NCBI GenBank assembly: GCA_049317265.1
Contig: JBMOIP010000001.1
Location: 140,685 to 204,684, forward strand
Direction: 5' to 3'
DNA length: 64,000 nucleotides
Source: Bacteroidales bacterium
Lineage (GTDB): Bacteria; Bacteroidota; Bacteroidia; Bacteroidales; FEN-979
The notes under the pieces were generated by a model. It was not told the origin of the DNA. It saw nothing but the letters and a program-made list of their open reading frames with translations, and did no database searches. This document shows positions 12,603 to 64,000 of the stretch, in pieces. The position numbers and the translations under genes were made by a program. Position 1 is the first letter of the stretch. Each line of letters opens with the position of its first letter.

Positions 12603-12605
12603 TCT

Positions 12606-38570: not shown

Positions 38571-38604
38571 ATGTCAGGAAATAGAAAAATGCATTAATTT
38601 CGCA

Positions 38605-38612: not shown

Positions 38613-38641
38613 GGAGATTATCCGCACTAAGCAATTTTTTG

Positions 38642-38680: not shown

Positions 38681-38690
38681 ATTTCAATTG

Positions 38691-38710
38691 CCTCGGCCTT
38701 CAGGCCGAGG
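38691..38710. promoter_or_regulatory. Perfect 8-bp GC hairpin abutting the first ATG of the wecE-like ORF
   Basis: CCTCGGCC-ttca-GGCCGAGG lies immediately before the ATG at 38711. Confidence 0.4.
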
Positions 38711-38740
38711 ATGGAGAAAAATGTTGATATAATTAATATC

Positions 38741-47645: not shown

Positions 47646-47653
47646 TAAGTTTG
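47646..47653 (+). promoter_or_regulatory. Candidate -7 box (TAAGTTTG) for giant paralog 1
   Basis: It lies 36 nt upstream of the ATG at 47689 and inside the ORF-track extension. This argues for 47689 as the start. Confidence 0.4.
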
Positions 47654-47688: not shown

Positions 47689-50600
47689 ATGAATTTTTAC
47701 AAGGACAGGTTAAGTGGAATATTCTGGAGAACACTGGCATTTTGTCTTCTGCTGCCGGGATTCTTTCTCCTGCCCTTGCATTTCTATGCCTTGACAATGC
47801 CTTTTTCCCCCGCTGTATTGCAGGGTATTGTTACAAACGGGGCAAATGGATTGCCGGTGGTGGGTGCAAAAATCTCCGTCAACGGAACTTTCACCTGGTC
47901 CACCTCGGGAGGAATATACACCATTGCCATCAATCCGGCCGGGACCTTCCAAGTTTCCTGTGTAAAGCCGGGGTTCGAAAACTATCTATCCGCACCGGTT
48001 GTTTTTCAGCCTGGTGGTACTTCGCTGTTAAATATCCAGTTATGGGAGAGCCTTAATCCTCCCGGCAATGTCAATGTTTCTCATGATACCGTTTCCCAGT
48101 CGGTTGCAGTCGCATGGAGTTCCCCGTCAGGCGCATATGAATTGCTGTATGACGATGGTTTGCCTGATAATTTCGCCCTCTGGACTACCCAGGGGAATAT
48201 GAATGCACTCAAATTTACTCCGGTTGGATTTCCGGTAAAACTTACGGGAGGAGCCATTCATATTGGTTCAGTCTCCAATTATCCCCCGGGAAGCAACCCC
48301 CTGACCCCTTTCCAGGTGAGGATTTACGATGCCGCCGGCGCCGGTGGTTCACCTGGAAACAGTATTGCAGGTCCGTTTAATGTGGTGCCGGCAGGCTTTG
48401 GGTGGGTTGAATTCACATTGCCTGCGCCGGTGTCCATCAGCAATGGCTCTTTCTATATCGTGATGGTCCAGGGGGGGAATGCGCCAAATGCATCAGGTAT
48501 AGCCGTCGACGAAACAAATCCGCAATACAGGAGCTATTCCAGGTTTGTCAGTGGGGGAGGTCCCTGGTATCCGGCCGGGGGTAATTTTATGATCAGGGCA
48601 AAATGTGAGGGTTCCGGAGGACCTGTCTTTCTCGCAGAGGATCCGGTCAATGCCGGTGTCAGCAACGTATACCGGCTGCGCCAGGGTGAGGAGCAGAATC
48701 CTTCAGCATGGACGCCTGTTGGAACGACCAATTCAACAATGATCACCGATACCAGCTGGTTTTCACTTCCCTGCGGACCTTACCGGTGGGGTGTGAAAGT
48801 GCAATATTCCGGCAATCGCTGGTCGCCTGTTGCCTTTTCAAACATCCTTGGTAAATGCTGGACCGCCCCTGTGAATATCCACCTCGATCTAAGTTGTGAC
48901 AGCGCTAAAAGAGAAGGAACCTCCCTTCGGCTTGTGAATGCTGCCTATCCCGACACTGCCTATGCAGCGGTTTTCGATACGGCGGGAAACATCACATTGC
49001 CGCATGTATGGAAAGGCACCTACCAGCTGACCATTGTAAAGTTCGGATTTGACTCAATTATTCAATCTGTCCCCGTGGTGGCGCCGGTTTCCCTGAACCT
49101 GGTTCTCCTGCAGGTGAAAATTGCGCCGGCAAACCTGGTGGTGAACGACAGCAGCCTGATGGCGAGGTGGGATGTTCCTCACTTTGAAAGTAACCTTTTC
49201 ACTGAAGATTGGGCCACAGGTTCCCTAACAGCCAATTCATGGACGATAGAAGGTGGTTCCAACTGGGCAATATCGACAGCGGTTGGCAATCCTTTTCCTT
49301 CTGTCATGTTCGGAACAACCCCGGCGCAATCAAATTATTCACAGTTTTTAACCAGTAAAACGATTTCGGGGCAGCACTCCACCCTGCTGAAACTCAGGTA
49401 CGATATTTTCCTCGACAATTATGGCACCACCACCCTGAACCAGATGGCGGTGGAGATCTGGGACGGATCTGTGTGGCATACCCTTGAAAATCACACAAGT
49501 TCCGGCGGAGATATTCCATGGACCAGTGCAGATATCGACATTTCCGGGTATACCGCGATGGATTTTAAAATCCGGTTCCATGCTTTTGGAGGCGATACAA
49601 GGGATATCAACAACTGGAACATCGACAACATTGAAGTGGTCGCTTCTGAACCTGCTCAGGAACAGGCTGATTGCATCCTCGGATACTATTTCTATCTTGG
49701 GAATGTGATCAGCGGGTACACCACCAAGAATGCTTACCCGATTCCAGGGAACCAGGTCCAGTTCGGACAGACCTATACCGCCTGCGTCAGGGCCCTGTAT
49801 GGCAGCGGGTATTCCGATTCTGTCTGCACAACTTTCACCTCCGGGTTCCTCTACCCGGTAAGGAACCTCCATGGATATCCCATTGAAAATGCCGCTTTTA
49901 TAGCCTGGGAGAAACCCCAGGAAGCTACAGATTCCACCCTGGGAGTCCCTCCCGGGCTTACCGGGTATACCATCACACGTGGCGACAGTGTAATAGCCAC
50001 CGTCAGCAACCCCGACTCATTGACTTTCTACGATTTCGGACTTGAGCCCGGTTATTACACGTATGGTGTAGCTGCAAACTATGACCTGACCAGTTATGGT
50101 TTTCCGGGGCAGTCAGGTCAAAGCATACCAGCCGGCCCGTTGCACCTTACCATCAACTGGGGAAGACAGCTTCCCTTTTATGAATCCTGGGATGCCGGGG
50201 TGTTTTCATTCAACGAATGGAGGTTTACACCTTCACAGGGAAACTGGATTATCGATCCCAACGAAGGACTTCCGTCGCCGGCTGCAAATTTCCGGTGGCA
50301 ACCCCCTGTGGTTGATTATGACTATGCCCTCGAAAGTCCTCCTTTCAACGGGTTGCCTTTTAATTGTGCTGCCATCTGGCTGGATTTCGACCTGAAACTC
50401 AACGACCGTAACTATACCGGAACAGAAAAAATGTTCGTCGAAGCTTATTACAACAATGCCTGGCATAAAAAGGCTGAAATCAAAAATACCGGCAGCATTC
50501 CCTGGACAAACTACCATATCGACATCAGTTCCGCGCGAGGGAAGGGATTCAGGGTGCGATTCAGGGCCTCTGGACAGAATTCATCTGAAATCCTCAACTG

Positions 50601-51669
50601 GTTTATCGATAATGTCAGCATCTATCCGGTATGCTATCCTGCAGCTGACCTTGAGGGAGCGCCGGTTGGCAGCGAAATCCACCTGACCTGGAGTCCTCCC
50701 GCATGTTATGGGGGAAATATTTTAAACGAGGGATTTGAAGGGATCTTTTTCCCCCCGGCACAATGGACAAAACAAACGGCCAATCCATCAGCCACATGGT
50801 CGCATTCCACAGTCAATTCTCTTACGGGGGTTCATCACGGAGACTATTCGGCCGGGGTGAACTGGGACTATAATCACCAGGATGAGTGGCTTATCGCCAA
50901 TAATATCTATGTAAATGGCGATCTTACCTTCTGGAGTTATACCTACCAGGGATCACTCCACCTGGATCACTATTATTTAAAAGTATCGGCCGACCAGGGA
51001 AACACATGGGATATAATGATGGATATGTCTGCACTTCCTCCATATCCCGGGCCATCGGGAATAAACGCATGGATCACGCCGTATCACGTCGATCTCTCCA
51101 TGTACGATGGCGAAACAATTGATATCGCATGGCATGCAGTTGATGGAGACGGAAACGGGCTGTGGTATCCATGGGCGATTGACGATTGTTCGATTGGTGC
51201 CGATGATCACCGTCAAACAATCCTGGGATATGATGTATACAGGAAAAACCCCGGAGCTAATTTCTACGGAAAAATAAATACAACACCGGTTACAGACACC
51301 GCCTGGACAGACAGTGGACTTCCGCTGGGACAATACAGGTATTTCGTTCAGGCACAGTTTGCAGAGTGTGTCAACTCTTCAAATTCTGATACAGTATTGG
51401 TTGACCTCGTTACAGGAACCGGAAGCTTCATGGAGCATAAAATGATGGTTTACCCCAATCCGGTTACCGACCATTTTACCATAGAAAGCGCAGCAGATAT
51501 ACTGGAAGTCAGCCTGTTCACCGCCGACGGAAAAATTGCCGGAAACTGGTCACCCGCAGGCACCCGCAAAATAACCATTGAAGCAACCTCATTGCATTCC
51601 GGTTTATATTTGCTCATGATCCGTAACCGGGCAGAGACAAGATTCCTGAAAATCAATGTAATTAAATAA
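47689..51669 (+). CDS. Giant T9SS cargo protein, paralog 1 (1326 aa): CarboxypepD_reg-like, beta-sandwich, FN3-like and MAM/choice-of-anchor-J-like modules, with a T9SS CTD
   Basis: A hydrophobic N-terminus is followed by GIVTNGANGLPVVGAKISVNG. Modules shared with paralogs 2 and 3 include YDDGLPDNFALW and FYESWDAGVFSFNEWRF...WLDFDLKLNDRNYTGTEKMFVEAYYNNAWH...FRVRFRASG. The C-terminus MVYPNPVTDHFTIES...GLYLLMIRNRAETRFLKINVIK is a T9SS type-A CTD. Confidence 0.75.
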   Translation: MNFYKDRLSGIFWRTLAFCLLLPGFFLLPLHFYALTMPFSPAVLQGIVTNGANGLPVVGAKISVNGTFTWSTSGGIYTIAINPAGTFQVSCVKPGFENYLSAPVVFQPGGTSLLNIQLWESLNPPGNVNVSHDTVSQSVAVAWSSPSGAYELLYDDGLPDNFALWTTQGNMNALKFTPVGFPVKLTGGAIHIGSVSNYPPGSNPLTPFQVRIYDAAGAGGSPGNSIAGPFNVVPAGFGWVEFTLPAPVSISNGSFYIVMVQGGNAPNASGIAVDETNPQYRSYSRFVSGGGPWYPAGGNFMIRAKCEGSGGPVFLAEDPVNAGVSNVYRLRQGEEQNPSAWTPVGTTNSTMITDTSWFSLPCGPYRWGVKVQYSGNRWSPVAFSNILGKCWTAPVNIHLDLSCDSAKREGTSLRLVNAAYPDTAYAAVFDTAGNITLPHVWKGTYQLTIVKFGFDSIIQSVPVVAPVSLNLVLLQVKIAPANLVVNDSSLMARWDVPHFESNLFTEDWATGSLTANSWTIEGGSNWAISTAVGNPFPSVMFGTTPAQSNYSQFLTSKTISGQHSTLLKLRYDIFLDNYGTTTLNQMAVEIWDGSVWHTLENHTSSGGDIPWTSADIDISGYTAMDFKIRFHAFGGDTRDINNWNIDNIEVVASEPAQEQADCILGYYFYLGNVISGYTTKNAYPIPGNQVQFGQTYTACVRALYGSGYSDSVCTTFTSGFLYPVRNLHGYPIENAAFIAWEKPQEATDSTLGVPPGLTGYTITRGDSVIATVSNPDSLTFYDFGLEPGYYTYGVAANYDLTSYGFPGQSGQSIPAGPLHLTINWGRQLPFYESWDAGVFSFNEWRFTPSQGNWIIDPNEGLPSPAANFRWQPPVVDYDYALESPPFNGLPFNCAAIWLDFDLKLNDRNYTGTEKMFVEAYYNNAWHKKAEIKNTGSIPWTNYHIDISSARGKGFRVRFRASGQNSSEILNWFIDNVSIYPVCYPAADLEGAPVGSEIHLTWSPPACYGGNILNEGFEGIFFPPAQWTKQTANPSATWSHSTVNSLTGVHHGDYSAGVNWDYNHQDEWLIANNIYVNGDLTFWSYTYQGSLHLDHYYLKVSADQGNTWDIMMDMSALPPYPGPSGINAWITPYHVDLSMYDGETIDIAWHAVDGDGNGLWYPWAIDDCSIGADDHRQTILGYDVYRKNPGANFYGKINTTPVTDTAWTDSGLPLGQYRYFVQAQFAECVNSSNSDTVLVDLVTGTGSFMEHKMMVYPNPVTDHFTIESAADILEVSLFTADGKIAGNWSPAGTRKITIEATSLHSGLYLLMIRNRAETRFLKINVIK

Positions 51670-51837
51670 ATATTCAGCGCAGTGTATTCATTTACCAAAA
51701 TAATTGTACCTTGCGAACTTATTCAAATAATTTTAAAGTGCTGATTTGCAATTTTTTTCCCTCTATATATATCAATAGAAATATTGGTACCCTTATATTT
51801 TCATTATTCAATAATTATTAACCTAAAATTTTAAACT

Positions 51838-54800
51838 ATGAAAAATGTTACCAAAACGCTGAAAATGTTGGCACTGCTTACAGTGTCGATGTTTGTCTTC
51901 GTTTCTTTTGGGTTTGCACAGCAGACGATGCTGTTGACCGAAAGCTTCGAGACAGGTAGCGGAACAACTCCTCCGGCCGGATGGGCGCTGGAACAGGTTA
52001 CAGGAACCACACTTGGTGTGAATTTCGTGACCACCAGTACCAATCCTACGATTTCGGCTGCTTATGATGGTGTGAGATTCGTCCAGTACGCCTCATATAA
52101 CATCAGCAGTGGCTCAACCCGTATGAAGAGGACTGCTGCAGTCTCCACCACAAACAAATCCTTTATCATGGTTGACTTTGTCTGGTATGAAGATCCAGGC
52201 TACACAGCCAATGCTGATAAAGTTGATGTACAGTGGTCTACCAACGGTACCACCTGGAACACAGCTGCTACTTTCAACCGCTACAATGCTGTAGCCGGAT
52301 GGAAAGCCAAAAATGTTGTTCTTCCTACCGGTGCCAACAACCAGGCTACTCTTTATGTTGCCTTCCTGTACACTTCAGCTTATGGCAATAACTGCGCAAT
52401 GGATCTGGTACATGTTACCGCCGGTCCTGCCGCACCTCCTGCCTTTGCTACCATTGGTACCGGAACCGTTTCTTCAAATTACCCGTATACCACTTACTGG
52501 ATGGGCGGAAGAACCCAGATGCTTTACACAGCCGCTGAATTAACAGCTGCAGGTGCATCAGCAGGGAACCTCTCTTCTGTAGGATTCAATGTAATCGGCA
52601 ACTCTACCCAGGTTATGAATGGTTTCAATGTGAAATTAGGCGCTACCGCCCTTACCACATTGTCTGCCGGCTATGTTGCTGGTCTCACATCCTATTATAC
52701 CACTCCTTATTCCGTTCCCGGAACCGGTTGGCAGAATATCACCCTGACCACCCCGTTTATCTGGAATGGCACCTCAAATGTAATTGTTGAAATTTGCTAT
52801 GCAAATACCAGTTATACCAACTATTCAACCGTAAATTCAACTACTCTTGCAGGAATGACCGCTGGTCACTATGCTGACCTCCAAACAGAATGCACTGTTG
52901 CAACAAACAATGCTCCGACTTCACGTCCGAACATTCGTTTTGGCATTCCCCCGATCAACCCTGGTGTTTTGATGGGTTATGTAAGGGATGTTAACACACT
53001 TGCCCCGATCGCCGGAGCAATTGTACGTATTGGCTCTTTACAGGATACTTCCCGTGCCAATGGAATGTACATCATCTATAACCTCAATGCAGGTTCTGTT
53101 ACTGCCAACGCTACTGCTACCGGCTATATCGCAGGTTCCGGCACAGCCACCATCGTTACCGGTGTAGTCACCAATCTTGATCTTCTTTTGGCTCCGGGCC
53201 CGAAGGTTGGTGGTATTGTTACCGATGCTTCAACAGGTTTACCAATTGTTGGTGCAACGATTACCGTTGGAACAGGCGCCAGTGCTGTAACCACGCTCTC
53301 AATTACAGGTGGTACCTATCTTACCCCGCTGCTCTCCCTCTCAGGTAGTCAGCCAATTATTATAGGAAAAACAGGTTATGATGACTGTTTGAACACCGTA
53401 ACCCTGGTTCCGAATACAACCGCTACCGTGAGTTGCGCTTTGTTACCCACCGCGGTTCAGCCAGGTCCTTTTACAGCTGTCCTGAATAATCCTACAACCC
53501 CTACTGCTGTTAACCTTAACTGGGGAGTTCCCCAGGGTGGATACCAGGTTATTTATGATGATGGTACTCAGGAAAATTTTGCTATCTGGGCCACCGCCAA
53601 TAACCTCAACGCACAGAAATTCACTCCGCTGAACTGGCCTGTGAAATTAGTAGGTGGTAAAGTGAACCTCGGAACTGCTGCAAATTATCCTGCAAATGCA
53701 CTTCCGCTTGCCAAGTTCAAAATGATGGCTTACAAAGCCGATGGCGCTGGTGGATTACCAGGTACCATTATCGACAGCGTTGAAGTTACTCCTACCGGAT
53801 TCGGCTGGGCTGATTTTACATTTGCTGCTCCTATCAATATCACTGCCGGTGACTTCTACCTGGTGATGAAACAAGGCGGAATTCCTCCTCACGCAGCCGG
53901 AATTGGTGTTGACTTAACCAATACCCAGCTCCGCAGCTATTCTAAATTTGTAACCGGTGGAGCTCCCTGGATTCCTGCCGCAGGTAACTTTATGATGCGT
54001 GCCATCATGCTGGGTACCGGTGGTCCGATGTTGTCTGACAATCCTTCAGCTAACAAGGAACTCATCACTGCTGGTGCAGTAAACGGCCTCATTTATGAAT
54101 CTCCTGTTGCTACTGTTACAGGTCATGAAGGTGTTGCTGATTACTCCCCATTATCCATGTCATACCAGGTATGGCGCCTCCTGCAGGGTCAGGAAGGAAA
54201 CCAGGCTCTCTGGACTTCCATCTGGACCGGCAGCGTTAACACAACTGTTGACAATGGCTGGCCTACATTACCGAACGGTGCATATCGTTGGGCTGTAAAA
54301 GCAATCTATTCTCCTCCGGGACAACGTCCTTCCGCACCGACATTCTCGAATGTTATCGGTAAAGGCTGGATTGCCAATGTAAATGTTTGTGTTGGTCTTA
54401 CCTGTACTGCAAATCCAAAAGCCGGTACCATTGTAAAACTGACCAATTCGGTTTACACGGATACCAACTATACAAAGACAACTGATACTGCTGGCTGTGT
54501 TCATTTTACCGGTGTTTGGAAAGGTACTTATGTGATGACCATTACCCGTTTCACATATCCTGTTTACACCCAGAACATCACCATCATGGGCGATGCCAGC
54601 TACAATGTAACTTTGTTACAGGATGCAGCTCCTCCCACAAACCTGGTTGTAAACGATCAGAGCCTCCATGCATCATGGAGTCCTCCAAGAGCAATGGTTT
54701 ATCAGCTTGATGAATCATTCGCAACTGGTTTTGCTACCAACGGATGGGTTGTTTCCGGCGGAACCAACTGGCAAATGTCTGCCGGTACAGGTAATCCTGC

Positions 54801-57800
54801 CCCTTCAGCTTTCTTTAACTGGACCCCACAGGTACAGGCTTACGATCAGTATCTGACCAGTAAATCTCTTGCCGGTGTTCATGCACCCCAGATGAAATTC
54901 AAATATGACATCTTCCTTGATAACTATGGTACAACCAACCTGAACACCATGGCGGTTGAACTTTGGAACGGAACCACATGGTCCGTCTTGAAGACCTATG
55001 ATAACTCAAGCGGTGCCAACATTCCCTGGACTTCTGAAACCATTGATATCTCTGCTCAAACCCACAACCCCGCTTTCAAGGTTCGTTTCCATGCAGCCGG
55101 TGTGAATTCTGTGGATATTGACGGATGGTATATTGACAATGTGAAAATCGTTAGTTCAGATGGATCAACCGGTCCGAATCCTTGCGTGATTGGTTACAAC
55201 TTCTACCTCAACGGAACTCAGAGTGCTTTCACACCTGATACCACTTATAACATTCCGCCGAACCAGGTGGTTTATGGCCAGACATACCAGGCTTGCGTAA
55301 AAGCAGTTTATGGTAGCGGTTACAGCCCACAGATCTGCGTGACCTTCACTGCTCATTACCTCTATCCTGCACGTGACCTCACAGCAACCGGTGTTGAATG
55401 TAATACTTACTTAACCTGGAAAAAACCTGTTACCGTAGGCGATGCTCCGGTTATTCCTATGTTTGACGGAGTTGTTGAACATTCACAATCAGTATCAGGT
55501 CTTGCTCCTAAAAACGCTGCAGCCGTTGTCAGTTCACTGCCAACAGATGCGCCTTTAGGTTCAAACGCTTTTGGTATCGATGCATCAACCCATTTCACCA
55601 TCAATTTTGATGTGAACAACGTTGGTGGCAAGGTGAATATTGCTGCTACTCCCAACGCAACTGATTTCTGGCACGATCTTGAAATGCCGGCCAATCAGGT
55701 TGACTTTGCTTATGCCATCAGAGATGGAAGCGACCACCTCTTCAAGGTGATCAGGGCAACTGGCGCCTTTACCGATCTTGGCAGCATGGGCAACGGAACA
55801 ACCGACCAGATGCTTGACCTCGCAATCGATGGCAGCAATGGCGACATCTATGGTGTCTCTTCTGCTTCTTTGACGACTGATAAACTCTGGAAGATCAATC
55901 CTGCAGTTCCAAGCGCCACACTTGTTGGTCCTTGCGTTAACTCAGCTGGTATGATCAGTATGGCCGGTGATGCTCTTGGTAACCTCTATGGATATGACCT
56001 CGTAAACGACAGGTTCTATTCAATCAACAAAACCACAGGTCTTGCTACTGTTGTTGGTCCTCTCGGATTCGACGCTAACTACGGTCAGTGCATGTTCTAT
56101 GATCAGGCCGTTAATACCGTTACGATGGGCGCTTACAACAATACTGCTGGTCAGGGTCAAATCCGGGCCGTTGATGTCACCACAGGTGCTTCAACTGTAT
56201 TAAGCAGTACAGCCGATCAGATTTCAGGCGCAACTCTTCCTGTTACCACCTCTGGTGGCGGCGGCGGTGCAACACCTGATGGACTCATTGGTTACAACAT
56301 CTATCGTGATGGAACCTTTATCCACAGGAATCCACACCAGGATTCAATTACTTATTATGACTACGGACGCGATCCGGGTACATACAAATATGATGTTAAG
56401 GCCAGGTATGACCTTACCACCTACGGTTTCCCAGGACAGTTTGGTGAATCACTTACCAACACTGCCGGCGAACAGACTGTAACCCTGAATTGCGGCGCTC
56501 CGCTGCCATTCTACGAACCTTGGGATCTTGGAACATTCTTATTCCAGAGCTGGGCACCAACAGGACATTGGACCATGAATACCGGTATCGGTAATCCTGC
56601 TCCTTGTGCCGACTTTGTATGGTCACCTGCTATTGCCAACTATTCACAAGCCCTTACAAGCGAAGTTATCGACGCTTCTCCATGGACCTGTGCTTCTATC
56701 TGGCTTGATTTCGATCTGAAACTTATCGACCGTAACAACACCGGTAAGGAAAAACTGACGATCGACTTATACTATAACAACTCATGGCACCAGAAGCTGG
56801 AAGTTACCAACAACGGTTCCACCAACTGGGTTTCCAAACATATTGACATCAGCTCGGTGAAGGGAAAATCATTCCGTATCCGTTTTGTTGCCAATGGTAT
56901 TAACTCAGCCGACCTTCTCCACTGGTATGTTGACAATATTCATGCTTATGGAATTTGTAAAGCACCTGCAGCTCTTCACGCTGTACAGTCACACTTTACA
57001 ACTACCCTTACCTGGACTGCCCCGAATTGCGGAAGCGGTACATCAGGTCAGATCATGAACTTCCTGTTTGATGATGGTACAGCCGAATCCGGAGTTACCG
57101 ACAATGGCGAAGTTGCCTGGTTGGGTACCGAATTCCCGATATCTGCAGCTTATGACGGAGTTTTGAAGCAATTCAAAATGTACTGGATGGCAAATGCCAC
57201 CGGCGCTCCTTTCACCATGCAGGTTGATGTTTACAGTGCTGCTCATGTCCTCCTTGGATCCAGTGCATCATTCCAGCCATCAAGTGATGATTGGGTAACT
57301 GTAACTGCTCCTGATATTCCTTTCGCAGGTCCATTCTTTGCCATGGTTAAGTTTAACAACAATCCTACGGCAACCAACTATTTTGGTTGGGATAATGACG
57401 GACCCAATGCAGGCCTTGACCTTGGCTGGTACAGGGATAATGCTGGCGTATGGGCAAAACTGAGCACCTTCGGACTCGGTATCGGAACTGGTTGTTTCGT
57501 TATCCAGGCACAGGCACTTGTTGGTGCTGACCTGAAGGAAGTAACCCTCGTTCCTGGTGCAGTTTCTGCTCCTGGTGCAACGGTTCCTGCCAACCATCTG
57601 TCGAAAACAAACCGTACAGCCGATACCCATTTCTATGGTGTTATGGGCATCGAAACGGATGCTGCTGACAGCAGTACCCTTTCAGGTTACAATGTTTATC
57701 GTACAGCTTCAACCGGTGTTGCTCCTTACGCGCTGCTGAATGCCAGCCCTGTAACTGCTGCAACTTATGTTGATACCTATCCTTCTACACTGCAGAGTGG

Positions 57801-58158
57801 AATCTTTAAGTACTATGTAACTTCATTGTACAAGAATTCTGCAAACAATGCACTGCTTTGTGAAGCTTCTTCTGATACAATCACTGTTACTTTCCCTGCT
57901 TTAGGTGTAAATGACCTGACCAATGGCCAGATCATGGTTTACCCAAATCCTGCGACTGAAATCGTGAATGTAAAGAGCGATTACACCATCACCAATGTTG
58001 ATGTGCTGAACTTTGTAGGTCAAACGGTTTATACCAGCAGAAATGTTGATGCCAAAACCGCGAAACTCAATGTTTCAACATTAACCGCAGGCGTATACTT
58101 CGTAAAGGTTTCTACCACCGAAGGCATCCGTACGGTTAAGATCACGGTGACACACTAA
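51838..58158 (+). CDS. Giant T9SS cargo protein, paralog 2 (2106 aa)
   Basis: The signal peptide is MKNVTKTLKMLALLTVSMFVFVSFGFAQ. An N-terminal LLTESFETGSGTTPPAGW module (cleaved-adhesin / choice-of-anchor-J style) is followed by two CarboxypepD_reg-like modules, several GYN[FIV]Y FN3-like modules and a beta-propeller-like cassette. The C-terminus is a T9SS CTD (MVYPNPATEIVNVKS...GVYFVKVSTTEGIRTVKITVTH). Confidence 0.8.
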   Translation: MKNVTKTLKMLALLTVSMFVFVSFGFAQQTMLLTESFETGSGTTPPAGWALEQVTGTTLGVNFVTTSTNPTISAAYDGVRFVQYASYNISSGSTRMKRTAAVSTTNKSFIMVDFVWYEDPGYTANADKVDVQWSTNGTTWNTAATFNRYNAVAGWKAKNVVLPTGANNQATLYVAFLYTSAYGNNCAMDLVHVTAGPAAPPAFATIGTGTVSSNYPYTTYWMGGRTQMLYTAAELTAAGASAGNLSSVGFNVIGNSTQVMNGFNVKLGATALTTLSAGYVAGLTSYYTTPYSVPGTGWQNITLTTPFIWNGTSNVIVEICYANTSYTNYSTVNSTTLAGMTAGHYADLQTECTVATNNAPTSRPNIRFGIPPINPGVLMGYVRDVNTLAPIAGAIVRIGSLQDTSRANGMYIIYNLNAGSVTANATATGYIAGSGTATIVTGVVTNLDLLLAPGPKVGGIVTDASTGLPIVGATITVGTGASAVTTLSITGGTYLTPLLSLSGSQPIIIGKTGYDDCLNTVTLVPNTTATVSCALLPTAVQPGPFTAVLNNPTTPTAVNLNWGVPQGGYQVIYDDGTQENFAIWATANNLNAQKFTPLNWPVKLVGGKVNLGTAANYPANALPLAKFKMMAYKADGAGGLPGTIIDSVEVTPTGFGWADFTFAAPINITAGDFYLVMKQGGIPPHAAGIGVDLTNTQLRSYSKFVTGGAPWIPAAGNFMMRAIMLGTGGPMLSDNPSANKELITAGAVNGLIYESPVATVTGHEGVADYSPLSMSYQVWRLLQGQEGNQALWTSIWTGSVNTTVDNGWPTLPNGAYRWAVKAIYSPPGQRPSAPTFSNVIGKGWIANVNVCVGLTCTANPKAGTIVKLTNSVYTDTNYTKTTDTAGCVHFTGVWKGTYVMTITRFTYPVYTQNITIMGDASYNVTLLQDAAPPTNLVVNDQSLHASWSPPRAMVYQLDESFATGFATNGWVVSGGTNWQMSAGTGNPAPSAFFNWTPQVQAYDQYLTSKSLAGVHAPQMKFKYDIFLDNYGTTNLNTMAVELWNGTTWSVLKTYDNSSGANIPWTSETIDISAQTHNPAFKVRFHAAGVNSVDIDGWYIDNVKIVSSDGSTGPNPCVIGYNFYLNGTQSAFTPDTTYNIPPNQVVYGQTYQACVKAVYGSGYSPQICVTFTAHYLYPARDLTATGVECNTYLTWKKPVTVGDAPVIPMFDGVVEHSQSVSGLAPKNAAAVVSSLPTDAPLGSNAFGIDASTHFTINFDVNNVGGKVNIAATPNATDFWHDLEMPANQVDFAYAIRDGSDHLFKVIRATGAFTDLGSMGNGTTDQMLDLAIDGSNGDIYGVSSASLTTDKLWKINPAVPSATLVGPCVNSAGMISMAGDALGNLYGYDLVNDRFYSINKTTGLATVVGPLGFDANYGQCMFYDQAVNTVTMGAYNNTAGQGQIRAVDVTTGASTVLSSTADQISGATLPVTTSGGGGGATPDGLIGYNIYRDGTFIHRNPHQDSITYYDYGRDPGTYKYDVKARYDLTTYGFPGQFGESLTNTAGEQTVTLNCGAPLPFYEPWDLGTFLFQSWAPTGHWTMNTGIGNPAPCADFVWSPAIANYSQALTSEVIDASPWTCASIWLDFDLKLIDRNNTGKEKLTIDLYYNNSWHQKLEVTNNGSTNWVSKHIDISSVKGKSFRIRFVANGINSADLLHWYVDNIHAYGICKAPAALHAVQSHFTTTLTWTAPNCGSGTSGQIMNFLFDDGTAESGVTDNGEVAWLGTEFPISAAYDGVLKQFKMYWMANATGAPFTMQVDVYSAAHVLLGSSASFQPSSDDWVTVTAPDIPFAGPFFAMVKFNNNPTATNYFGWDNDGPNAGLDLGWYRDNAGVWAKLSTFGLGIGTGCFVIQAQALVGADLKEVTLVPGAVSAPGATVPANHLSKTNRTADTHFYGVMGIETDAADSSTLSGYNVYRTASTGVAPYALLNASPVTAATYVDTYPSTLQSGIFKYYVTSLYKNSANNALLCEASSDTITVTFPALGVNDLTNGQIMVYPNPATEIVNVKSDYTITNVDVLNFVGQTVYTSRNVDAKTAKLNVSTLTAGVYFVKVSTTEGIRTVKITVTH

Positions 58159-58165
58159 TAACGTA

Positions 58166-58186
58166 GGGCGGCCGCAATGGCCGCCC
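58166..58186 (+). terminator. GC hairpin directly after paralog 2
   Basis: GGGCGGCC-gcaat-GGCCGCCC, 8 nt after the stop codon. Confidence 0.45.
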
Positions 58187-58198
58187 ATACAAACCCTA

Positions 58199-58231
58199 AA
58201 AGGGCCGGCCATTCGCCGGCCCTTTTTTTTT
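58199..58231 (+). terminator. Classic rho-independent terminator after paralog 2
   Basis: AGGGCCGGC-cattc-GCCGGCCCT forms a 9-bp stem followed by a T9 run. Confidence 0.8.
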
Positions 58232-58328
58232 CCCGTCCGCCCGTCCACCCGTCCACCCGTCCGCCCGTCCGCCCGTCCGCTTGTCCACTTGTCCACTTGT
58301 CCACTTGTCCACTTGTCCACTTGCCCAC
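58232..58328. repeat. Compound octamer tandem repeat: CCCGTCC[G/A] x6, then CTTGTCCA x5, then CTTGCCCA
   Basis: Twelve contiguous 8-bp units are read directly, starting immediately after the terminator T-run. The ORF-track entries on both strands here (58081-58359, 58177-58392, 58289-58495) are translations of the repeat. Confidence 0.95.
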
Positions 58329-58341
58329 AATACAGCCCGAT

Positions 58342-58350
58342 CCCCCCCCC
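58342..58350. repeat. Poly(C)9 homopolymer tract
   Basis: gaTCCCCCCCCCgaattc is read directly, 245 nt upstream of the paralog 3 ATG. Confidence 0.9.
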
Positions 58351-58402
58351 GAATTCCACAGTGAAATTTTACAATATTATTACGAAAATTAAATTTTGTG
58401 AT

Positions 58403-58410
58403 TATCTTTG
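58403..58410 (+). promoter_or_regulatory. Candidate -7 box (TATCTTTG) upstream of paralog 3
   Basis: A perfect TAnnTTTG match 185 nt upstream of the ATG at 58595. It may or may not be the promoter in use. Confidence 0.3.
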
Positions 58411-58594
58411 CATGGAGATAAAATCGTTTATTATTGTCTTATTTGTTGATAATCAGCATAATAATTATTATTGCTGGTTATCTGTTTATACTTGAAAACA
58501 TATGTATGTTGAAAGTTTATTCCCCATATATATCAATAAGTTTATTGATACCCTTATATTAATAGTCAATTATTATTAACCTAAATTCATCTCT

Positions 58595-61500
58595 ATGAAA
58601 AACGTTACAAAAATGGTCATGATGCTGCTGGTTTTCGCCATGGCATTTATGATTGCACCTCAGGCCAGGTCGCAGACAGTTCTGCTGACTGAAAGCTGGG
58701 AAAATGGAGGAGCTATTCCTGCTAACTGGGCCACCGCCCAGGTGACTGGTACTACGCTTGGATTATCTTATATTCTGGGTGGTGCCCCTGGTTACCCGGT
58801 GGTTTCTGCAGCCTATAACGGCTCTTACTTTGTTAAATACAACTCGTTTTCAATTAGTGGTGCAGGCACCAATTCAACACGCCTCTACAGAACCACGGGC
58901 ACATCTACCGTAGGTTATGCAGGATCGTCTGTAGATTTTGCTTTTTACCATGACCTTGGCTATACGGGAAGTACTGACAATGTTAAAGTACAATATTCCA
59001 TTGATGGTGGAGCAACCTGGACAACAGCCGGAACACAGGTAAATCGTTATGACGGTTCTACCGGCTGGAAGATTCACACCATTACCCTTCCTGCCAATGC
59101 TGGCAACCAGGCAAACCTCAGAATTGGTTTCCTGTTCACTTCATTCTATGGCAACGACTGCTATCTTGACTTTGCACACCTGAATGGTATTGCTTTGGGC
59201 ACTTTATCAGGCACTGTTACAAGCGCTGCCGGTGGAGCTCCTATTGCAAACGCATCAGTTGTTGTAAATGCTCTTCCTCCCGTTCTTACCAACGCAGCCG
59301 GTTTCTATTCTGTTTCAAACCTCAATGCCGGAACTGTTAATGTTACTGTTACTGCCACTGGTTTTGTTCCTTATTCAGGTACAGCTTCCATTAGCGGCGG
59401 CGTTACCACCACCTTGAACATTTCAATGCTTCTGCCTCCAAGGGCAAGTGGTGTTGTGACCGATGCTTCAACTGGTAATTTTATCGTTGGCGCTACCGTG
59501 AAAATCGGTACAGGCGCTAACCAGACGACCACCTATACTACCGCTGGTGGTGTCTACCTCACAGCTCTTCTTCCGGTTGTTGGCGTTCAGCCTATCGTTA
59601 TCGGCAAAACCGGTTATGATGATTTCAGTGGCAACATTACACTGGCAGCTGGTACAACCGCTTCCCAGGATGCCGCTTTATTACCTACTGCTGTTCCTCC
59701 GGGACCTTTCACCGCAGTTTTGAACAATCCTACCACTCCGACTGCCGTCAACCTCAACTGGGGAGTTCCACAGGGATTCTACCAGATGATCTATGATGAT
59801 GGTACTCAGGATAATTTTGCTATCTGGGCAACTGCCAATAACCTCAATGCCTTAAAGTTCACCCCGCTGGGATGGCCAGTAAAACTCATTGGTGGTAAAG
59901 TAAACCTTGGAACTGTTTCAAATTACCCGACAGCCACAACCCTTCCGCTTGCCAAGTTTATGATGATGGCCTATAAAGCTGATGGTGCCGGTGGTCTTCC
60001 GGGAACAAAAATTGACAGTGTAGAAGTTACTGCCAACGCTTTTGGCTGGGTTGATTTCTCATTTGCAGCTCCTATAACTATCAACTCAGGTGATTTCTAC
60101 CTGGTGATGAAACAAGGTGGCATTCCTCCCCAGGCTGCCGGTCTTGGCGTTGACTTAACCAACACCCAACTCCGCAGCTATTCGAAATTTGTTACCGGTG
60201 GCGCTCCCTGGATTCCTGCCGCTGGCAATTTCATGATGCGTGCCATCATGCAGGGTGTAGGTGGTCCTATGCTGGGTGATAACGCTTCATCCAATAAGGA
60301 ACTCATCACTGCTGGTGCCGTTAATGGCCTTATCTATGAAACTCCTGTTACCACGGTTTCTGGTTATGAAGGCGTTGCCCGTACCGAGCCTTTCGATTGG
60401 TCAACCATGATGAATACCAATGTTGCCCAGCAATTTACGTTACCAGTTGCCGTCAACCAGACTGAGACTGACAATGGTGTTGGATCAACAATCGTTGGTA
60501 CTCCTGTAGTTCTTACCGATGCACCTTCTTCCGTACTGTTTGATAACGGATCAATGGTTACCGGTGTAGGTACTGGTTTTGGTGGCGCCGATGAGAGCAT
60601 GCTCCAGGCCCCGCTTACCGGCTATGGAAGCAACGTAAACCGCGCAGCATATTACCGCATCGCTGATGATTTCACCGTAAGTGGAACCGCATGGAATGTT
60701 ACCTCCCTCGAATTCTTTGGGTATCAGACCGGATCTACTACAACGTCATCATTTACCGCTGTTTACTGCCGGATTCTCAATGGTACACCGGGACAGCCTG
60801 GTACAACTGTTGTTTGGGGTGATACTACTACCAACAGAATGTCAAGCACTTCTTTCACGAATATTTACCGTGTTAGTGTTACTGGTAATACCCAGCGTCC
60901 GATCATGAAAATGGTTGTGAATACTTCCGGACTCACCCTGCCTGCAGGAAATTACTGGATTGAATTCAGCGCTGCCGGAACTATCGCTTCCGGCCCATGG
61001 TGTCCGTATGTAACCATCAACAATACTCCGACAACTGGTAATGGTTTGTTATTTACTGGTCTTGCCGGCGGTTATGTGCCCATCAATACAACTTATGGCC
61101 AGGGTGTTCCTTTCAAAATCAACGGAACCCAGCCAACCACCAGCACCATGAGCTACCAGGTATGGCGACTGAAACAAGGACAGGAAGGCAACCAGGCTCT
61201 CTGGACTTCCATCTGGACAGGCAACGTGAACACAACCGTTGACAATGGCTGGCCAACCCTTGCCTGCGCTCCTTACCGTTGGGCTGTTAAAGCGATCTAT
61301 TCCCCTCCGGGACAGCGTCCTTCAGCTCCGACATTCTCCAATGTAATTGGAAAATGCTGGATTGCCAATGTGAACGTTTGTGCTACCTTAACCTGCGCTG
61401 CCAATCCTAAAGCCGGTACCGTGGTTAAACTGGTAAACCAGGATTATCCTGACACAAACTACACCAAAACAACCGATACATCAGGTTGTGTGCATTTTAC

Positions 61501-64000
61501 CAACGTTTGGAAAGGTAACTACCAGTTGCAGGTGATTCGTTTCACTTACCCGGTATATACCCAGAACATCGTTATCAATGGTGATGCTTCCTATAACGTA
61601 ATGTTACTCCAGGATGCAGCTCCTGCTACCAACCTGGTTGTTAACGATCAGAGCCTCCATGCATCATGGAGTCCTCCAAGAGCAATGGTTTACCAGCTTG
61701 ACGAAACCTTTACCGCCGGTGGTTTCACAACCAACCAGTGGGTGGTTTCCGGCGGAACCAACTGGCAGATGTCTGCCGGTACAGGTAACCCAGCTCCATC
61801 AGCTTTCTTTAACTGGACCCCGACCGTAACAAACTACGATCAGTACCTCACCAGTAAGTCACTGGCAGGTGTTCATGCTCCCCAGATGAAACTGAAGTAT
61901 GACATCTTCCTCGACAACTATGGTACAACCAACCTGAATACAATGGCTGTTGAGCTTTGGAACGGAACAACTTGGTCCGTGCTGAAGACTTATGACAACT
62001 CATCAGGTGCTAATATTCCATGGACTTCAGAAACCCTTGATATCACTTCACAGACCCATAACCCCGCTTTCAAGGTTCGTTTCCATGCAGCTGGTGTTAG
62101 CTCTGTTGATATCGACGGATGGTATGTTGACAACATCAAGGTGGTAAGCACCGATGGAACAACAGGCCCGAATCCTTGCGTTATTGGTTACAACTTCTAT
62201 CTGAACAATGTATTGAGCGCTTTCACGCCTGATACCACTTACAACATTCCGCCGAACCAGGTGGTTTATGGCCAGACTTACCAGGCTTGCGTAAAAGCAG
62301 TTTATGGTAGCGGTTACAGCCCACAGATCTGTGTGAACTTCACTGCTCATTTCCTCTATCCTGCACGTGACCTCACAGCTACCGGTGTTGAATGTAACAC
62401 TTACTTAACCTGGAAGAAACCGGTTACCATGGGTGATGCTCCTGAAATTCTCGGAATGACCCAGCGTACCGATTTCCCGAATGCCAATGCCGAATTCTCT
62501 CCATTTATCTATACGATGAAGGAAAAAGAAAACAGCGATAACAGCGACGTTCTTTGGGATGTTCTTTATGGTTGGGCTGGTTCAGGTACAGGTCAGGCTG
62601 GTGTTGAAATCGTTGGTGACTTTATTTACTCCACTTCATGGAGTGTTGGACCACCCTGGTTCTTCAAATATCAGGCTACAACAGGTGCCCTTATTGAATC
62701 ATTCAGCATTCCTGGCGTAACTGCAGTCCGCGACCTTACCTATGATGGAACTCAATTCATGTATGGTGGTTCAAATGCTTCTTCTATCTATAAAATGGAC
62801 TTCAACACAAAAACACTGGTAGCTACTATTCCTACCTCTGTTCCAGGTGTGCGTCACATTGCTTATGATGTTACCAACAATGGTCTCTGGTGTGGTGGAT
62901 GGACGGATCTCTATCTCGTGAACATTACTACCGGCGCTACCATTGCTACTGGTCCTGCCGTAGTTAGCATTTATGGTTCAGCATGGGAAAACCAGACATC
63001 TGGTGGTCCATACCTCTGGCTCCACGGTCAGGGTGCAGCCGGAACCGGCGACGAATACCAGAAATGGAAAATTACCGGAACTACTGTAACAAACACTGGT
63101 GTTGTTCATAACAACGCAAGCACAAACATCAATGGTCCTGCCGGCGGTTTAGGTTGTGGCCAGGTTGGTACCAAATTGGCGCTTATCGGTTTGAACCAGG
63201 CAACTGCTGCAAGCTGGATCTGGGCAACTGAAATTGGTGATTGGTCAGGTGGCACAGGCGGTGGTTCAACCCCGGTTGGTCTCGTTGGATACAACATCTA
63301 TCGTGATGGCGCTTTCATTCACAGGAACCCACACCAGGATTCAATTACCTACTACGATTATGGTCTGAACCCGGGCACTTACAAATATGATGTAAAAGCC
63401 AGGTATGATCTGACTACTTATGGTTTCCCGGGACAGTTTGGTGAATCACTTACCAACACAGCCGGCGAAAAGACCGTAACCCTGAATTGCGGCGCTCCGC
63501 TGCCATTCTACGAACCATGGGATCTTGGAACATTTGCTTTCCAGAGCTGGGCTCCGACCGGACATTGGACAATGAACACCGGTATCGGTAATCCTGCACC
63601 ATGTGCCGACTTTACATGGCAACCTGCTATCGCCAACTATACCCAGGCCCTCACCAGCGAAGTAATTGATGCTTCTCCATGGACCTGTGCCAAGATTTGG
63701 CTTGATTTCGATTACAAACTGATCGACCGCAACAACACTGGTAAAGAAAAACTTACCATTGATATCTTCTACGGTGGCTCATGGCATCAGAAGTTGGAAG
63801 TTACCAACAACGGTTCAACCAACTGGATTCCAAAGCATATTGACATCAGCGCTGTGAAAGGTAAATCTTTCCGCATCCGCTTCGTTGCCAATGGTGTGAA
63901 CTCTGGCGATATGCTGCACTGGTATGTTGACAATATCCATGCTTATGGAATTTGTACTCCTGCTACTGCACTGCATGCTACACAGTCACATTTCACCACC
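58595..64000 (+). CDS. Giant T9SS-cargo-type protein, paralog 3 (at least 1802 aa; 3' end outside window)
   Basis: It is absent from the ORF track because no stop is reached. The frame from the ATG at 58595 stays open to nt 64000, exactly 1802 codons, and no same-frame ORF break is listed. The signal peptide is MKNVTKMVMMLLVFAMAFMIAPQARSQ. The translation is collinear with paralog 2, with long DNA blocks about 85-94% identical. Confidence 0.8.
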   Translation, partial: MKNVTKMVMMLLVFAMAFMIAPQARSQTVLLTESWENGGAIPANWATAQVTGTTLGLSYILGGAPGYPVVSAAYNGSYFVKYNSFSISGAGTNSTRLYRTTGTSTVGYAGSSVDFAFYHDLGYTGSTDNVKVQYSIDGGATWTTAGTQVNRYDGSTGWKIHTITLPANAGNQANLRIGFLFTSFYGNDCYLDFAHLNGIALGTLSGTVTSAAGGAPIANASVVVNALPPVLTNAAGFYSVSNLNAGTVNVTVTATGFVPYSGTASISGGVTTTLNISMLLPPRASGVVTDASTGNFIVGATVKIGTGANQTTTYTTAGGVYLTALLPVVGVQPIVIGKTGYDDFSGNITLAAGTTASQDAALLPTAVPPGPFTAVLNNPTTPTAVNLNWGVPQGFYQMIYDDGTQDNFAIWATANNLNALKFTPLGWPVKLIGGKVNLGTVSNYPTATTLPLAKFMMMAYKADGAGGLPGTKIDSVEVTANAFGWVDFSFAAPITINSGDFYLVMKQGGIPPQAAGLGVDLTNTQLRSYSKFVTGGAPWIPAAGNFMMRAIMQGVGGPMLGDNASSNKELITAGAVNGLIYETPVTTVSGYEGVARTEPFDWSTMMNTNVAQQFTLPVAVNQTETDNGVGSTIVGTPVVLTDAPSSVLFDNGSMVTGVGTGFGGADESMLQAPLTGYGSNVNRAAYYRIADDFTVSGTAWNVTSLEFFGYQTGSTTTSSFTAVYCRILNGTPGQPGTTVVWGDTTTNRMSSTSFTNIYRVSVTGNTQRPIMKMVVNTSGLTLPAGNYWIEFSAAGTIASGPWCPYVTINNTPTTGNGLLFTGLAGGYVPINTTYGQGVPFKINGTQPTTSTMSYQVWRLKQGQEGNQALWTSIWTGNVNTTVDNGWPTLACAPYRWAVKAIYSPPGQRPSAPTFSNVIGKCWIANVNVCATLTCAANPKAGTVVKLVNQDYPDTNYTKTTDTSGCVHFTNVWKGNYQLQVIRFTYPVYTQNIVINGDASYNVMLLQDAAPATNLVVNDQSLHASWSPPRAMVYQLDETFTAGGFTTNQWVVSGGTNWQMSAGTGNPAPSAFFNWTPTVTNYDQYLTSKSLAGVHAPQMKLKYDIFLDNYGTTNLNTMAVELWNGTTWSVLKTYDNSSGANIPWTSETLDITSQTHNPAFKVRFHAAGVSSVDIDGWYVDNIKVVSTDGTTGPNPCVIGYNFYLNNVLSAFTPDTTYNIPPNQVVYGQTYQACVKAVYGSGYSPQICVNFTAHFLYPARDLTATGVECNTYLTWKKPVTMGDAPEILGMTQRTDFPNANAEFSPFIYTMKEKENSDNSDVLWDVLYGWAGSGTGQAGVEIVGDFIYSTSWSVGPPWFFKYQATTGALIESFSIPGVTAVRDLTYDGTQFMYGGSNASSIYKMDFNTKTLVATIPTSVPGVRHIAYDVTNNGLWCGGWTDLYLVNITTGATIATGPAVVSIYGSAWENQTSGGPYLWLHGQGAAGTGDEYQKWKITGTTVTNTGVVHNNASTNINGPAGGLGCGQVGTKLALIGLNQATAASWIWATEIGDWSGGTGGGSTPVGLVGYNIYRDGAFIHRNPHQDSITYYDYGLNPGTYKYDVKARYDLTTYGFPGQFGESLTNTAGEKTVTLNCGAPLPFYEPWDLGTFAFQSWAPTGHWTMNTGIGNPAPCADFTWQPAIANYTQALTSEVIDASPWTCAKIWLDFDYKLIDRNNTGKEKLTIDIFYGGSWHQKLEVTNNGSTNWIPKHIDISAVKGKSFRIRFVANGVNSGDMLHWYVDNIHAYGICTPATALHATQSHFTT

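Follow-up and report, generated by a model that had tools for sequence, protein, structure and literature searches.

A tandem array of modular type IX secretion cargo genes with mosaic conservation in a Bacteroidales bacterium

Three paralogous genes and their modules

The DNA considered here is a window of 64,000 nucleotides from a Bacteroidales bacterium (assembly GCA_049317265.1, contig JBMOIP010000001.1, positions 140,685 to 204,684), in which the part from 47.6 to 64 kb is filled by three same-strand open reading frames (ORFs), designated G1, G2 and G3. G1, the short paralog (47689..51669, + strand), encodes 1326 amino acids; its ORF is open from 47587, but the start at 47689 gives the same length as that of the genes called in three related genomes. 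G2 (51838..58158, + strand) is a long paralog of 2106 amino acids. G3, the second long paralog (58595..64000, + strand, counted from its ATG), is still open at the end of the window and encodes at least 1802 amino acids; its orthologs have 2189 and 2195 amino acids (89% and 84% identity) and possess a PF18962 C-terminal domain (CTD). An earlier note on this window had described three paralogous type IX secretion system (T9SS) cargo genes with a shared module order, and the ORFs, the profile hidden Markov models (HMMs) and the motifs listed in that note agree in this respect. By their sequences, G1, G2 and G3 are collinear paralogs on one common scaffold. Their central property is the patchy identity of G2 and G3, in which blocks that were very probably homogenized by gene conversion alternate with blocks that stayed distinct.

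The module order was mapped with our own profile HMMs cut from alignments of homologs, and domains were searched for with Pfam and NCBIfam at curated cut-offs (full proteins at E ≤ 0.01; segments were also scanned alone at E ≤ 1). In each protein, about 12-16 modules of the beta-sandwich, FN3-like and CarboxypepD_reg-like kinds are strung together. G1 represents the bare scaffold: a signal peptide is followed by CarboxypepD_reg (amino acids 41-119), a YDDG beta-sandwich (134-314), an FN3-like module (326-397), a CarboxypepD_reg-like module (398-482), the MAM-like module X1 (503-653), the FN3-like modules fnB (661-745) and fnC (754-821), the MAM-like module X2 (825-984), a choice-of-anchor J domain (1012-1169), the FN3-like module fnD (1177-1241) and a T9SS type A CTD (1252-1325). 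G2 and G3 additionally possess an N-terminal jelly-roll domain (N-domain), a second CarboxypepD_reg and a beta-propeller between fnB and fnC. Thus, G2 consists of a signal peptide, N-domain (30-195), the cassette ins200 (200-371), two CarboxypepD_reg (376-537), YDDG (545-735), a disordered linker (732-771), an FN3-like (775-850) and a CarboxypepD_reg-like module (850-935), X1 (955-1108), fnB (1112-1199), the beta-propeller/DUF6923 (1211-1475), fnC (1480-1550), X2 (1552-1710), a choice-of-anchor-J-like FDDG module (1730-1935), fnD (1945-2030) and the CTD (2032-2106). In G3, the N-domain (28-197), two CarboxypepD_reg (202-364) and YDDG (372-563) precede a G3-specific insert (~598-852), which is followed by an FN3-like (853-928) and a CarboxypepD_reg-like module (928-1013), X1 (1033-1187), fnB (1191-1278), the propeller (1318-1553), fnC (1560-1630) and X2 (1632-1789). 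Among the three genes, ins200 (170 amino acids) is present in G2 only and the insert of ~250 amino acids after YDDG in G3 only. The motifs IYDDGTQENFAIW, LPFYEPWDLGTF..W and GYNFY/GYNIY/GYNVY are present in the proteins.

The T9SS CTD, which the earlier note had placed at the ends of the first two paralogs, scores above the curated cut-offs in both: TIGR04183 (cut-off 23) gives 31.2 bits in G1 and 38.3 in G2, and PF18962 (cut-off 27) gives 36.1 and 48.8, respectively. A hydrophobic N-terminal leader is present in all three proteins (signal peptides were judged by eye), and the predicted cleavage exposes a glutamine in G2 (...SFGFA|QQT) and in G3 (...QARS|QTV), again by eye. This fits the Q-rule of Bacteroidetes, i.e., a glutamine after the signal-peptide cleavage site (PMC5837995). 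G1-G3 are therefore probably exported via Sec and T9SS and anchored at the cell surface. CarboxypepD_reg (PF13620, cut-off 32.3), another of the models proposed for checking, was matched by all three genes (46.6, 51.4 and 84.2 bits for G1, G2 and G3).

The FYE.WD module had been described as MAM- or choice-of-anchor-J-like. X1 and X2 indeed structurally resemble MAM and reelin subrepeat B (the latter similarity is seen in the N-domain as well as in the X modules); however, MAM (PF00629) does not reach its gathering score of 26.4 (G1, 23.4 bits; G2 segment, 17.3 bits), and the formal choice-of-anchor J domain is a different module. The latter model (NF038128, cut-off 30) matches G1 1012-1169 with 67.9 bits and has no direct match in G2 or G3 in the NCBIfam scan. 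In our own profile comparison G2 1730-1935 matches the choice-of-anchor J region of G1 (1031-1161) with E 6e-10, and a module homologous to that of G1 is located at the corresponding place of G2 and G3 orthologs. The suggested search for Cleaved_Adhesin (PF07675) gave no match in G1-G3, nor were DUF2436 or C25 found there, either in the full proteins or in the segments; PF07675 turned up solely in P0077, a distant relative. No Pfam model matched the G3 insert, the G3 propeller segment or G2 1725-2040, and sequence searches of the PDB with G1, G2 and G3 gave no match. Comparison of our module profiles with each other (hhalign) links only X1 with X2, the FN3-like modules among themselves and the CarboxypepD_reg-like modules among themselves; no tie was detected among the G3 insert, ins200, the N-domain and YDDG.

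Mosaic conservation of G2 and G3

In the codon alignment (regions are given in G2 coordinates), the nucleotide identity of G2 and G3 ranges from ~35% to 96% in sharply bounded blocks, i.e., divergence along the alignment is not uniform. Most of the values estimated in the earlier note are close to the measured ones: 54.8% in the first 200 codons (55-60% estimated), 77.8% at 53460-53700 (~80%) and 94.0% at 55251-55448 (~94%). At 54160-54360 there is a block of high identity as well, although the estimate of ~88% was slightly too high (81.6% measured). The unevenness is in fact stronger than had been proposed, as identity falls to 30-50% (about 20-35% at the protein level) in the propeller block (G2 amino acids 1210-1475) and returns to 75-91% from the end of the propeller to the end of the window. 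The best candidate conversion tracts (all + strand) are 70-197 nucleotides long with 91-97% identity. The strongest one extends over 197 nucleotides at 55225..55421 in G2 (62219-62415 in G3; 95.9%); the others are located at 53908..54010 (60149-60251; 91.3%) and 56425..56616 (63422-63613; 91.7%), with two short ones at 54640-54710 (61631-61701; 97.2%) and 54751-54827 (61745-61821; 93.5%).

We compared these genes across genomes. G2 had no exact sequence match in public assemblies; close orthologs (78-90% identity), on contigs with the same three-gene array, were obtained by homology search. Five genomes were used: the window (W), L001 (A), L002 (B), L003/L010 (C) and L008 (D), the four latter being from uncultured Bacteroidales. 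Informative sites in quartets of two G2 and two G3 sequences support orthology of G2 with G2 and of G3 with G3 almost exclusively in the N-domain, the CarboxypepD_reg pair and the propeller (265 sites versus 12 in the propeller of W and L001). In X1-fnB and fnC-X2, most of the sites group the sequences of the same genome (in X1-fnB, e.g., 0:7 and 0:8 per 40 codons). The neighbour-joining trees of segments give the same picture: X1-fnB clusters by genome (bootstrap 90% for G2 and G3 of W, 95% for those of A, 100% for C and 100% for D), and the N-domain and the propeller cluster by gene type with 99-100% (propeller: all G2-type sequences 100%, G3-type sequences of W, A and C 99%). Furthermore, synonymous divergence (dS) in X1-fnB is lower between the paralogs of a genome (0.68 in W, 0.44 in A) than between orthologs (0.92-1.16). 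Finally, a Sawyer-type permutation test for runs of identical polymorphic sites reached p ≤ 0.011 for three within-genome pairs only (W, p=0.003; A, p=0.0005; B, p=0.011); one cross-genome pair was nominally significant (p=0.037), and the other 17 of the 21 pairs had p ≥ 0.06. The proposal of ongoing gene conversion is thus backed by quartet sites, segment trees, synonymous divergence and the run-length test, and we regard a mosaic generated by conversion between G2 and G3 as very probable. The scaffold modules (part of YDDG, X1-fnB and fnC-X2) are homogenized repeatedly in each genome through tracts of 70-200 nucleotides, and the N-domain, the propeller and the choice-of-anchor-J-like module remain distinct and orthologous between genomes; for the last of these, this is judged from the G3 orthologs, as this part of G3 lies beyond the end of the window. 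In genomes B and D, the N-domains of the long genes are also homogenized (90-92% nucleotide identity versus 55% in W).

Could the same pattern have arisen after one old duplication by unequal purifying selection only, with a slowly evolving scaffold beside fast domains? The very low dN/dS of the scaffold (0.04-0.08), i.e., strong constraint, is what this explanation would predict. However, constraint acts on amino acids, yet synonymous divergence is lowered as well: third-position identity is 82-92% at the strongest tract (92% within its peak around 55261-55410) versus ~62-66% just upstream (overlapping 50-codon windows), and dS of paralogs (0.44-0.68) is below that of orthologs (0.92-1.16). 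Moreover, the scaffold clusters by genome (90-100%) and the cassettes of the same genes by gene type, and the variable modules are equally constrained between orthologs (dN/dS 0.05-0.11). Taken together, quartet sites, trees, dS and the run test make constraint alone insufficient; this explanation is already contradicted, and we consider it highly improbable. Indeed, the dN/dS of orthologs is 0.04-0.12 in every module, so that all modules, including the variable ones, are under purifying selection; this implies that both long genes are functional and specialized.

An assembly artefact, in which chimeric joining of G2 and G3 reads produced the tracts of high identity, has to be considered, as all compared sequences are metagenome-assembled genomes (MAGs) or metagenome contigs. 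Nevertheless, the longest exact run shared by G2 and G3 has only 53 nucleotides, meaning that k-mers of typical size tell the copies apart, none of the ORFs is disrupted, and the same kind of pattern occurs in five independent assemblies with the tracts at different places. An artefact is therefore hardly credible. Conversion between G2 and G3 does not seem to extend to the short gene: nearly every quartet-site block of G1 supports orthology, its nucleotide identity to G2 and G3 is 30-64% and has no high peaks, and G1 appears to take no part in the process.

Cassettes occupy fixed slots in the proteins. The beta-propeller cassettes of G2 (55468..56262, + strand) and G3 (62546..63253, + strand) are homologous, with about 20-35% protein identity, and belong to distinct types; a profile built from the G2 region (~265 amino acids) and its relatives, including G3 of L002, matches the G3 segment with E 1.7e-33. 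When scanned alone, G2 1205-1490 (window 55450-56307) matches DUF6923 (PF21959, cut-off 27) with 30.4 bits (E 4e-7), and the predicted fold is, with moderate confidence, a propeller of the six-blade type (AlphaFold2/Foldseek). Literature searches on DUF6923 and on T9SS combined with gene conversion and paralogs returned nothing. Among 73 proteins of the family, the position separating fnB from fnC is unoccupied in 12, and the remaining 61 have a cassette of 200-300 amino acids there; these cassettes fall into at least 7 clusters. The G3 gene of L002 has a propeller type different from that of G3 in the window, with similar flanks.

The second cassette, ins200 (52435..52950, + strand; G2 amino acids 200-371), is absent from G3. 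This all-beta module of ~170 amino acids, for which there is no Pfam model, has the motifs IGTGT..RTQ.LYTAAEL..VPGTGW..TPF.W[DN]GTSN..C..RPN.RF; no consistent Pfam match was found among 18 diverse members, and its profile gave one chance-level match in the PDB (E 0.57). A search with the same profile, however, returned 11,591 representative proteins, of which 8,153 have E ≤ 1e-10; the module reaches 14 copies in a single protein and occurs in giant proteins as well as in T9SS cargo containing C25-peptidase, GEVED or PKD domains. It looks like a very widespread, so far undescribed domain family. The third cassette is the G3-specific insert (60386..61150, + strand; ~250 amino acids), which has neither a Pfam match nor profile similarity to the other modules and occurs in long genes of other genomes as well. 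The junctions at which ins200 and the G3 insert occur, or are missing, are fixed across the family. Homologous recombination may start only where the sequences are still similar, and this would homogenize the scaffold modules; at the same time, the scaffold modules may double as homology arms for swapping divergent cassettes within and between genomes. Such swapping would explain the existence of at least 7 propeller types, and of the empty state, at one slot.

The cassettes bear on a further explanation, according to which the mosaic results mainly from exchange of cassettes or alleles between strains or species (homologous recombination after DNA uptake) rather than from conversion between tandem copies. 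In line with this, the long genes of L002 and L008 have a third propeller type that is also found in L019, where there is only one long gene (bootstrap 100%), the one slot is either empty or occupied by a member of at least 7 cassette clusters, ins200 and the G3 insert come and go at fixed junctions, and Porphyromonas gingivalis recombines its own T9SS adhesins in this way (PMC5266723). Exchange alone, however, leaves unexplained why the scaffold segments of G2 and G3 are each other's closest relatives within five separate genomes and why the run test was passed by within-genome pairs only. As the main source of the mosaic it is possible but doubtful, and it is best seen as a process complementary to conversion between G2 and G3.

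The locus, its flanking elements and its distribution

Upstream of G1, TAAGTTTG (47646..47653, + strand) matches the Bacteroidetes -7 consensus TAnnTTTG 36 nucleotides before the ATG. It lies inside the longer ORF starting at 47587 and is part of GTAAGTTTGTAAC, a block that three genomes have in common upstream of G1. As judged from the consensus, TAAGTTTG is a candidate promoter of G1, and this promoter-like box supports the start at 47689 over that at 47587. G2 is followed by an intrinsic terminator (58198..58226, + strand; a 12-bp stem with 8 GC pairs and then a T-run), which suggests that G3 is transcribed separately. Another match to TAnnTTTG, TATCTTTG (58403..58410, + strand), located in an upstream block that is conserved among four genomes, is probably the G3 promoter, which would imply a 5' untranslated region (UTR) of ~180 nucleotides. 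A scan for sigma-70 promoters, a model not applicable to Bacteroidetes, yielded no more sites than shuffled sequences, and no convincing inverted repeats of the invertible-promoter or shufflon type were found around the three 5' regions.

A palindrome precedes each of the two long genes: TATCAATA-N4-TATTGGTA (51770..51789, + strand) lies 49 nucleotides upstream of the G2 ATG and may be an operator or a 5'-UTR element, and the perfect palindrome TATCAATA-AGTT-TATTGATA (58531..58550, + strand) lies 45 nucleotides upstream of the G3 ATG. In 15 loci, TATCAATA-N4-TATTGATA is present upstream of long genes (-45 to -68 before G2/G3), i.e., besides the window in L001, L002, L003, L006, L010, L019-L021, L023, L026, L028, L047, L060 and L063. 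The half-sites are conserved and the spacer is variable, the distance to the ATG is ~50 nucleotides where gene starts are called, and none would be expected by chance in the window. No copy was found upstream of the short genes of the G1 type. The palindrome is a candidate operator to which a regulator may bind, and G2 and G3 may be co-regulated via this element common to their upstream regions.

Directly behind the G2 terminator there are 8-bp tandem repeats (58232..58328, + strand), (CCCGTCCR)n followed by (CTTGTCCA)n. Other genomes have their own, unrelated short tandem repeats behind this terminator (e.g., L001 at about 16480-16530, with units of ~7-8 nucleotides, and L003 at about 8190-8310); the site is thus hypervariable and microsatellite-like, with a fixed position.

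A scan of one genome per species revealed 72 loci of the family, almost all in MAGs of uncultured Bacteroidales, Prolixibacteraceae or Draconibacterium; the isolate labels mostly refer to lake water columns (e.g., Lac Pavin, ELA). In at least 30 related MAGs/loci the array occupies a fixed slot after L21/L27/SerRS and before an ABC-F gene and consists of one gene for ~1330 amino acids and then one (e.g., L019, L023, L047, L050, L052, L071, L072) or two long genes (W, L001, L002, L008, L010, L059, L061/62). This synteny suggests that the pair of a short and a long gene is old and that the second long gene exists only in some lineages. Consequently, the characterization of the family as expanding is only partly apt, as only the second long gene varies between lineages and the pair in its fixed slot is old. 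Between the window and L001 (5850-9830), the G1 orthologs have 72% amino acid identity, compared to 90% for G2 and 89% for G3; the short gene evolves faster than G2 and G3, yet its length is fixed at 1326 amino acids in this pair.

The neighbours of the array are housekeeping genes. Upstream, on the opposite strand, there are genes for L21, SerRS, an outer membrane beta-barrel protein, an MtnA-like protein and a BNR/sortilin protein. The latter (1125 amino acids; sortilin/Vps10-BNR repeats; window 40158-43535, - strand) is encoded equally far from the array in most syntenic loci, with 75-95% amino acid identity, and no CTD was detected in it. Elsewhere in the window, a fused oxidoreductase of 1269 amino acids (12507-16316; 2Fe-2S, GltD-like FAD/NAD and molybdopterin domains) and a small cluster with sulfotransferase, polysaccharide flippase and DegT aminotransferase genes (36182-39877) are encoded.

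Related MAGs possess further family members at other loci, where they adjoin other T9SS cargo genes; a check of these neighbours for glycan-utilization genes found no SusC/D and no glycosidases. Some of these loci resemble surface-protein islands (L018 16629-18755, L073 4832-6958, L053 7257-9422, L027 7056-9143, L031 8406-10769), the adjacent cargo proteins having SprB repeats, Ig-like domains, a sortilin/BNR domain or a beta-lactamase fold, and a CTD each. Radical-SAM genes adjoin family members at L012, L039 and L049. Note also that two contigs with a syntenic locus of the Bacteroidales type, L023 (SACF01000010.1) and L069 (JBLNAN010000339.1), with SerRS and L21 70-77% identical to those of the window, are assigned to MAGs that bear the names "Alphaproteobacteria bacterium" and "Syntrophothermus sp.", probably through mis-binning.

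Possible function and comparison with known systems

No enzyme domain was found in G1-G3 by Pfam, NCBIfam, PDB profiles or AlphaFold2/Foldseek, in agreement with the earlier note. AlphaFold2 predicts G2 1-1200 to be all-beta (pLDDT 82.6), apart from a single disordered linker of ~40 residues. The best Foldseek matches of the G2 models in the PDB are extracellular binding proteins with several domains, i.e., reelin repeats, RPTPmu MAM-Ig-FN, Eph ectodomains, ROS1/Sevenless, contactins, CBM22 tandems, SdrD, pilins and Bap, as well as LRP6/NHL-type propellers; a catalytic core is absent among them. Because architecture, export signals and structural neighbours point in this direction, G1-G3 may be non-enzymatic, surface-anchored adhesins or binding fibres for polymers, particles or other cells, a tentative assignment with a nearly even chance of being correct. 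G2 and G3 would then present different binding specificities, i.e., their cassettes, on a common stalk.

Taken as a whole, the locus is best explained by exported, surface-anchored modular fibres that evolve by segmental conversion and carry exchangeable cassettes, and we regard this combined interpretation as fairly likely. Several points weigh against it. The C-terminal half of G2 is poorly modelled (pLDDT 59.6). The DUF6923 match appears only when the segment is scanned alone and not in the scan of the full 2106-residue G2 (E ≤ 0.01); besides, this propeller could be catalytic, and a few Foldseek matches are propeller or CBM parts of glycosidases. Every comparison genome is a metagenome assembly. 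Finally, part of the mosaic (e.g., the third propeller type in G3 of L002) needs exchange with other alleles or genomes and not conversion between G2 and G3.

The possibility of a catalytic propeller leads to the view that G1-G3 are enzymes (e.g., glycoside hydrolases or lyases), with the propeller or another unannotated module as the catalytic part and the rest as carbohydrate-binding appendages. A sialidase, a GH43-type arabinofuranosidase and an arabinanase are indeed among the Foldseek matches, there is weak Pfam similarity to the polysaccharide-lyase accessory domains fn3_3, RGI_lyase and DUF4082, and ins200 also occurs in C25 peptidase-type cargo. However, the glycosidase-like matches have low TM-scores, the low-rmsd matches of the propeller being the non-catalytic LRP6 and NHL; Pfam and NCBIfam revealed no enzyme family and the PDB no sequence match; the propeller is missing from G1 and from 12 of 73 relatives; and the neighbourhoods examined contain no glycosidase or SusC/D genes. 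An enzymatic function thus seems unlikely. An S-layer-like coat instead of discrete adhesins is more improbable still. Such a coat would be compatible with very large surface proteins encoded at a conserved housekeeping locus and with the match of G3 to the NCBIfam model of the Kustd1514 S-layer glycoprotein (NF052345, E 1e-12); yet this match (46.4 bits versus a cut-off of 1400) is confined to one CarboxypepD_reg stretch of 80 residues, the beads-on-a-string architecture with its 40-residue disordered linker is not lattice-like, and related MAGs have family members at several loci.

Returning to surface-anchored fibres, one can go further and imagine the short-plus-long locus as a dedicated system for the display of cassettes, with a stalk kept uniform by conversion and three fixed slots reloadable by recombination: one at the tip for the N-domain, accompanied or not by ins200, one in mid-chain for the propeller and one at the base for the choice-of-anchor-J-like module. 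A common regulator binding the TATCAATA-N4-TATTGATA palindrome would control the long genes, and the short G1 protein would be an obligatory partner, anchor or co-fibre subunit. All these elements together make up a speculative picture which we consider rather unlikely to be right in its entirety.

The array does not overturn current understanding; its value is descriptive and that of a starting point. Outside the oral pathogens, it is a natural and well-controlled case of T9SS cargo under domain-bounded concerted evolution, with five independent genomes for comparing orthologs and paralogs; blocks homogenized within each genome and blocks distinct since before species divergence coexist in the same genes. 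Furthermore, it delineates a locus conserved in abundant uncultured Bacteroidales of anoxic lakes, together with a family of modular proteins whose fixed cassette slots are candidate determinants of particle, polymer or cell binding. By-products are the widespread domain of ~170 amino acids that has no Pfam model and the conserved palindrome, a possible lead to a surface-protein regulator.

Among the known systems, very large, beta-rich and repetitive T9SS cargo displayed on the surface is represented by SprB of Flavobacterium and the grappling-hook protein GhpA of Aureispira. A GhpA fragment is among the Foldseek matches of the G2 model (rank 19); however, G1-G3 have no sequence relationship to SprB or GhpA, and the window genes contain no SprB repeats, although some family members at other loci adjoin SprB-repeat cargo genes. 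SprB has a type B CTD and dedicated partners. Surface proteins of the choice-of-anchor J/MAM type (NF038128; PF00629) are similar in that G1 possesses a bona fide domain and the G2/G3 orthologs a homologous module, but these are domain labels and not functional families, and MAM stays below its gathering score in G1-G3. Concerted evolution of tandem surface-protein paralogs is known from other systems; G2 and G3 likewise have homogenized blocks between divergent ones, clustering by genome and short tracts. There is no sign of programmed or high-frequency antigenic variation, silent cassettes or invertible promoters here, and both long copies are full-length genes of the expressed type.

The closest analogue is the adhesin region of RgpA/Kgp/HagA from P. 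gingivalis. These proteins are T9SS type A cargo as well, they consist of long strings of beta-sandwich adhesin modules of roughly 160 amino acids, and identical or near-identical repeat sequences are common to the paralogous genes; the modules occur in varying orders, and their diversity has been attributed to recombination and gene conversion (PMC5266723). In contrast to them, G1-G3 have no match to a C25 protease domain, Cleaved_Adhesin or DUF2436, are arranged in tandem at one conserved locus, are built from CarboxypepD_reg, MAM-like, choice-of-anchor J, DUF6923 propeller and unannotated modules, and come from uncultured freshwater anaerobes rather than from an oral pathogen; moreover, the identity of the paralogs is at most ~96% over ~200 nucleotides, without long identical repeats. 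By sequence, therefore, G1-G3 are not members of that family. They belong to a known kind of proteins, i.e., modular surface proteins of the T9SS type whose evolution proceeds through conversion of gene segments and exchange of cassettes, of which they are a new, uncharacterized example.

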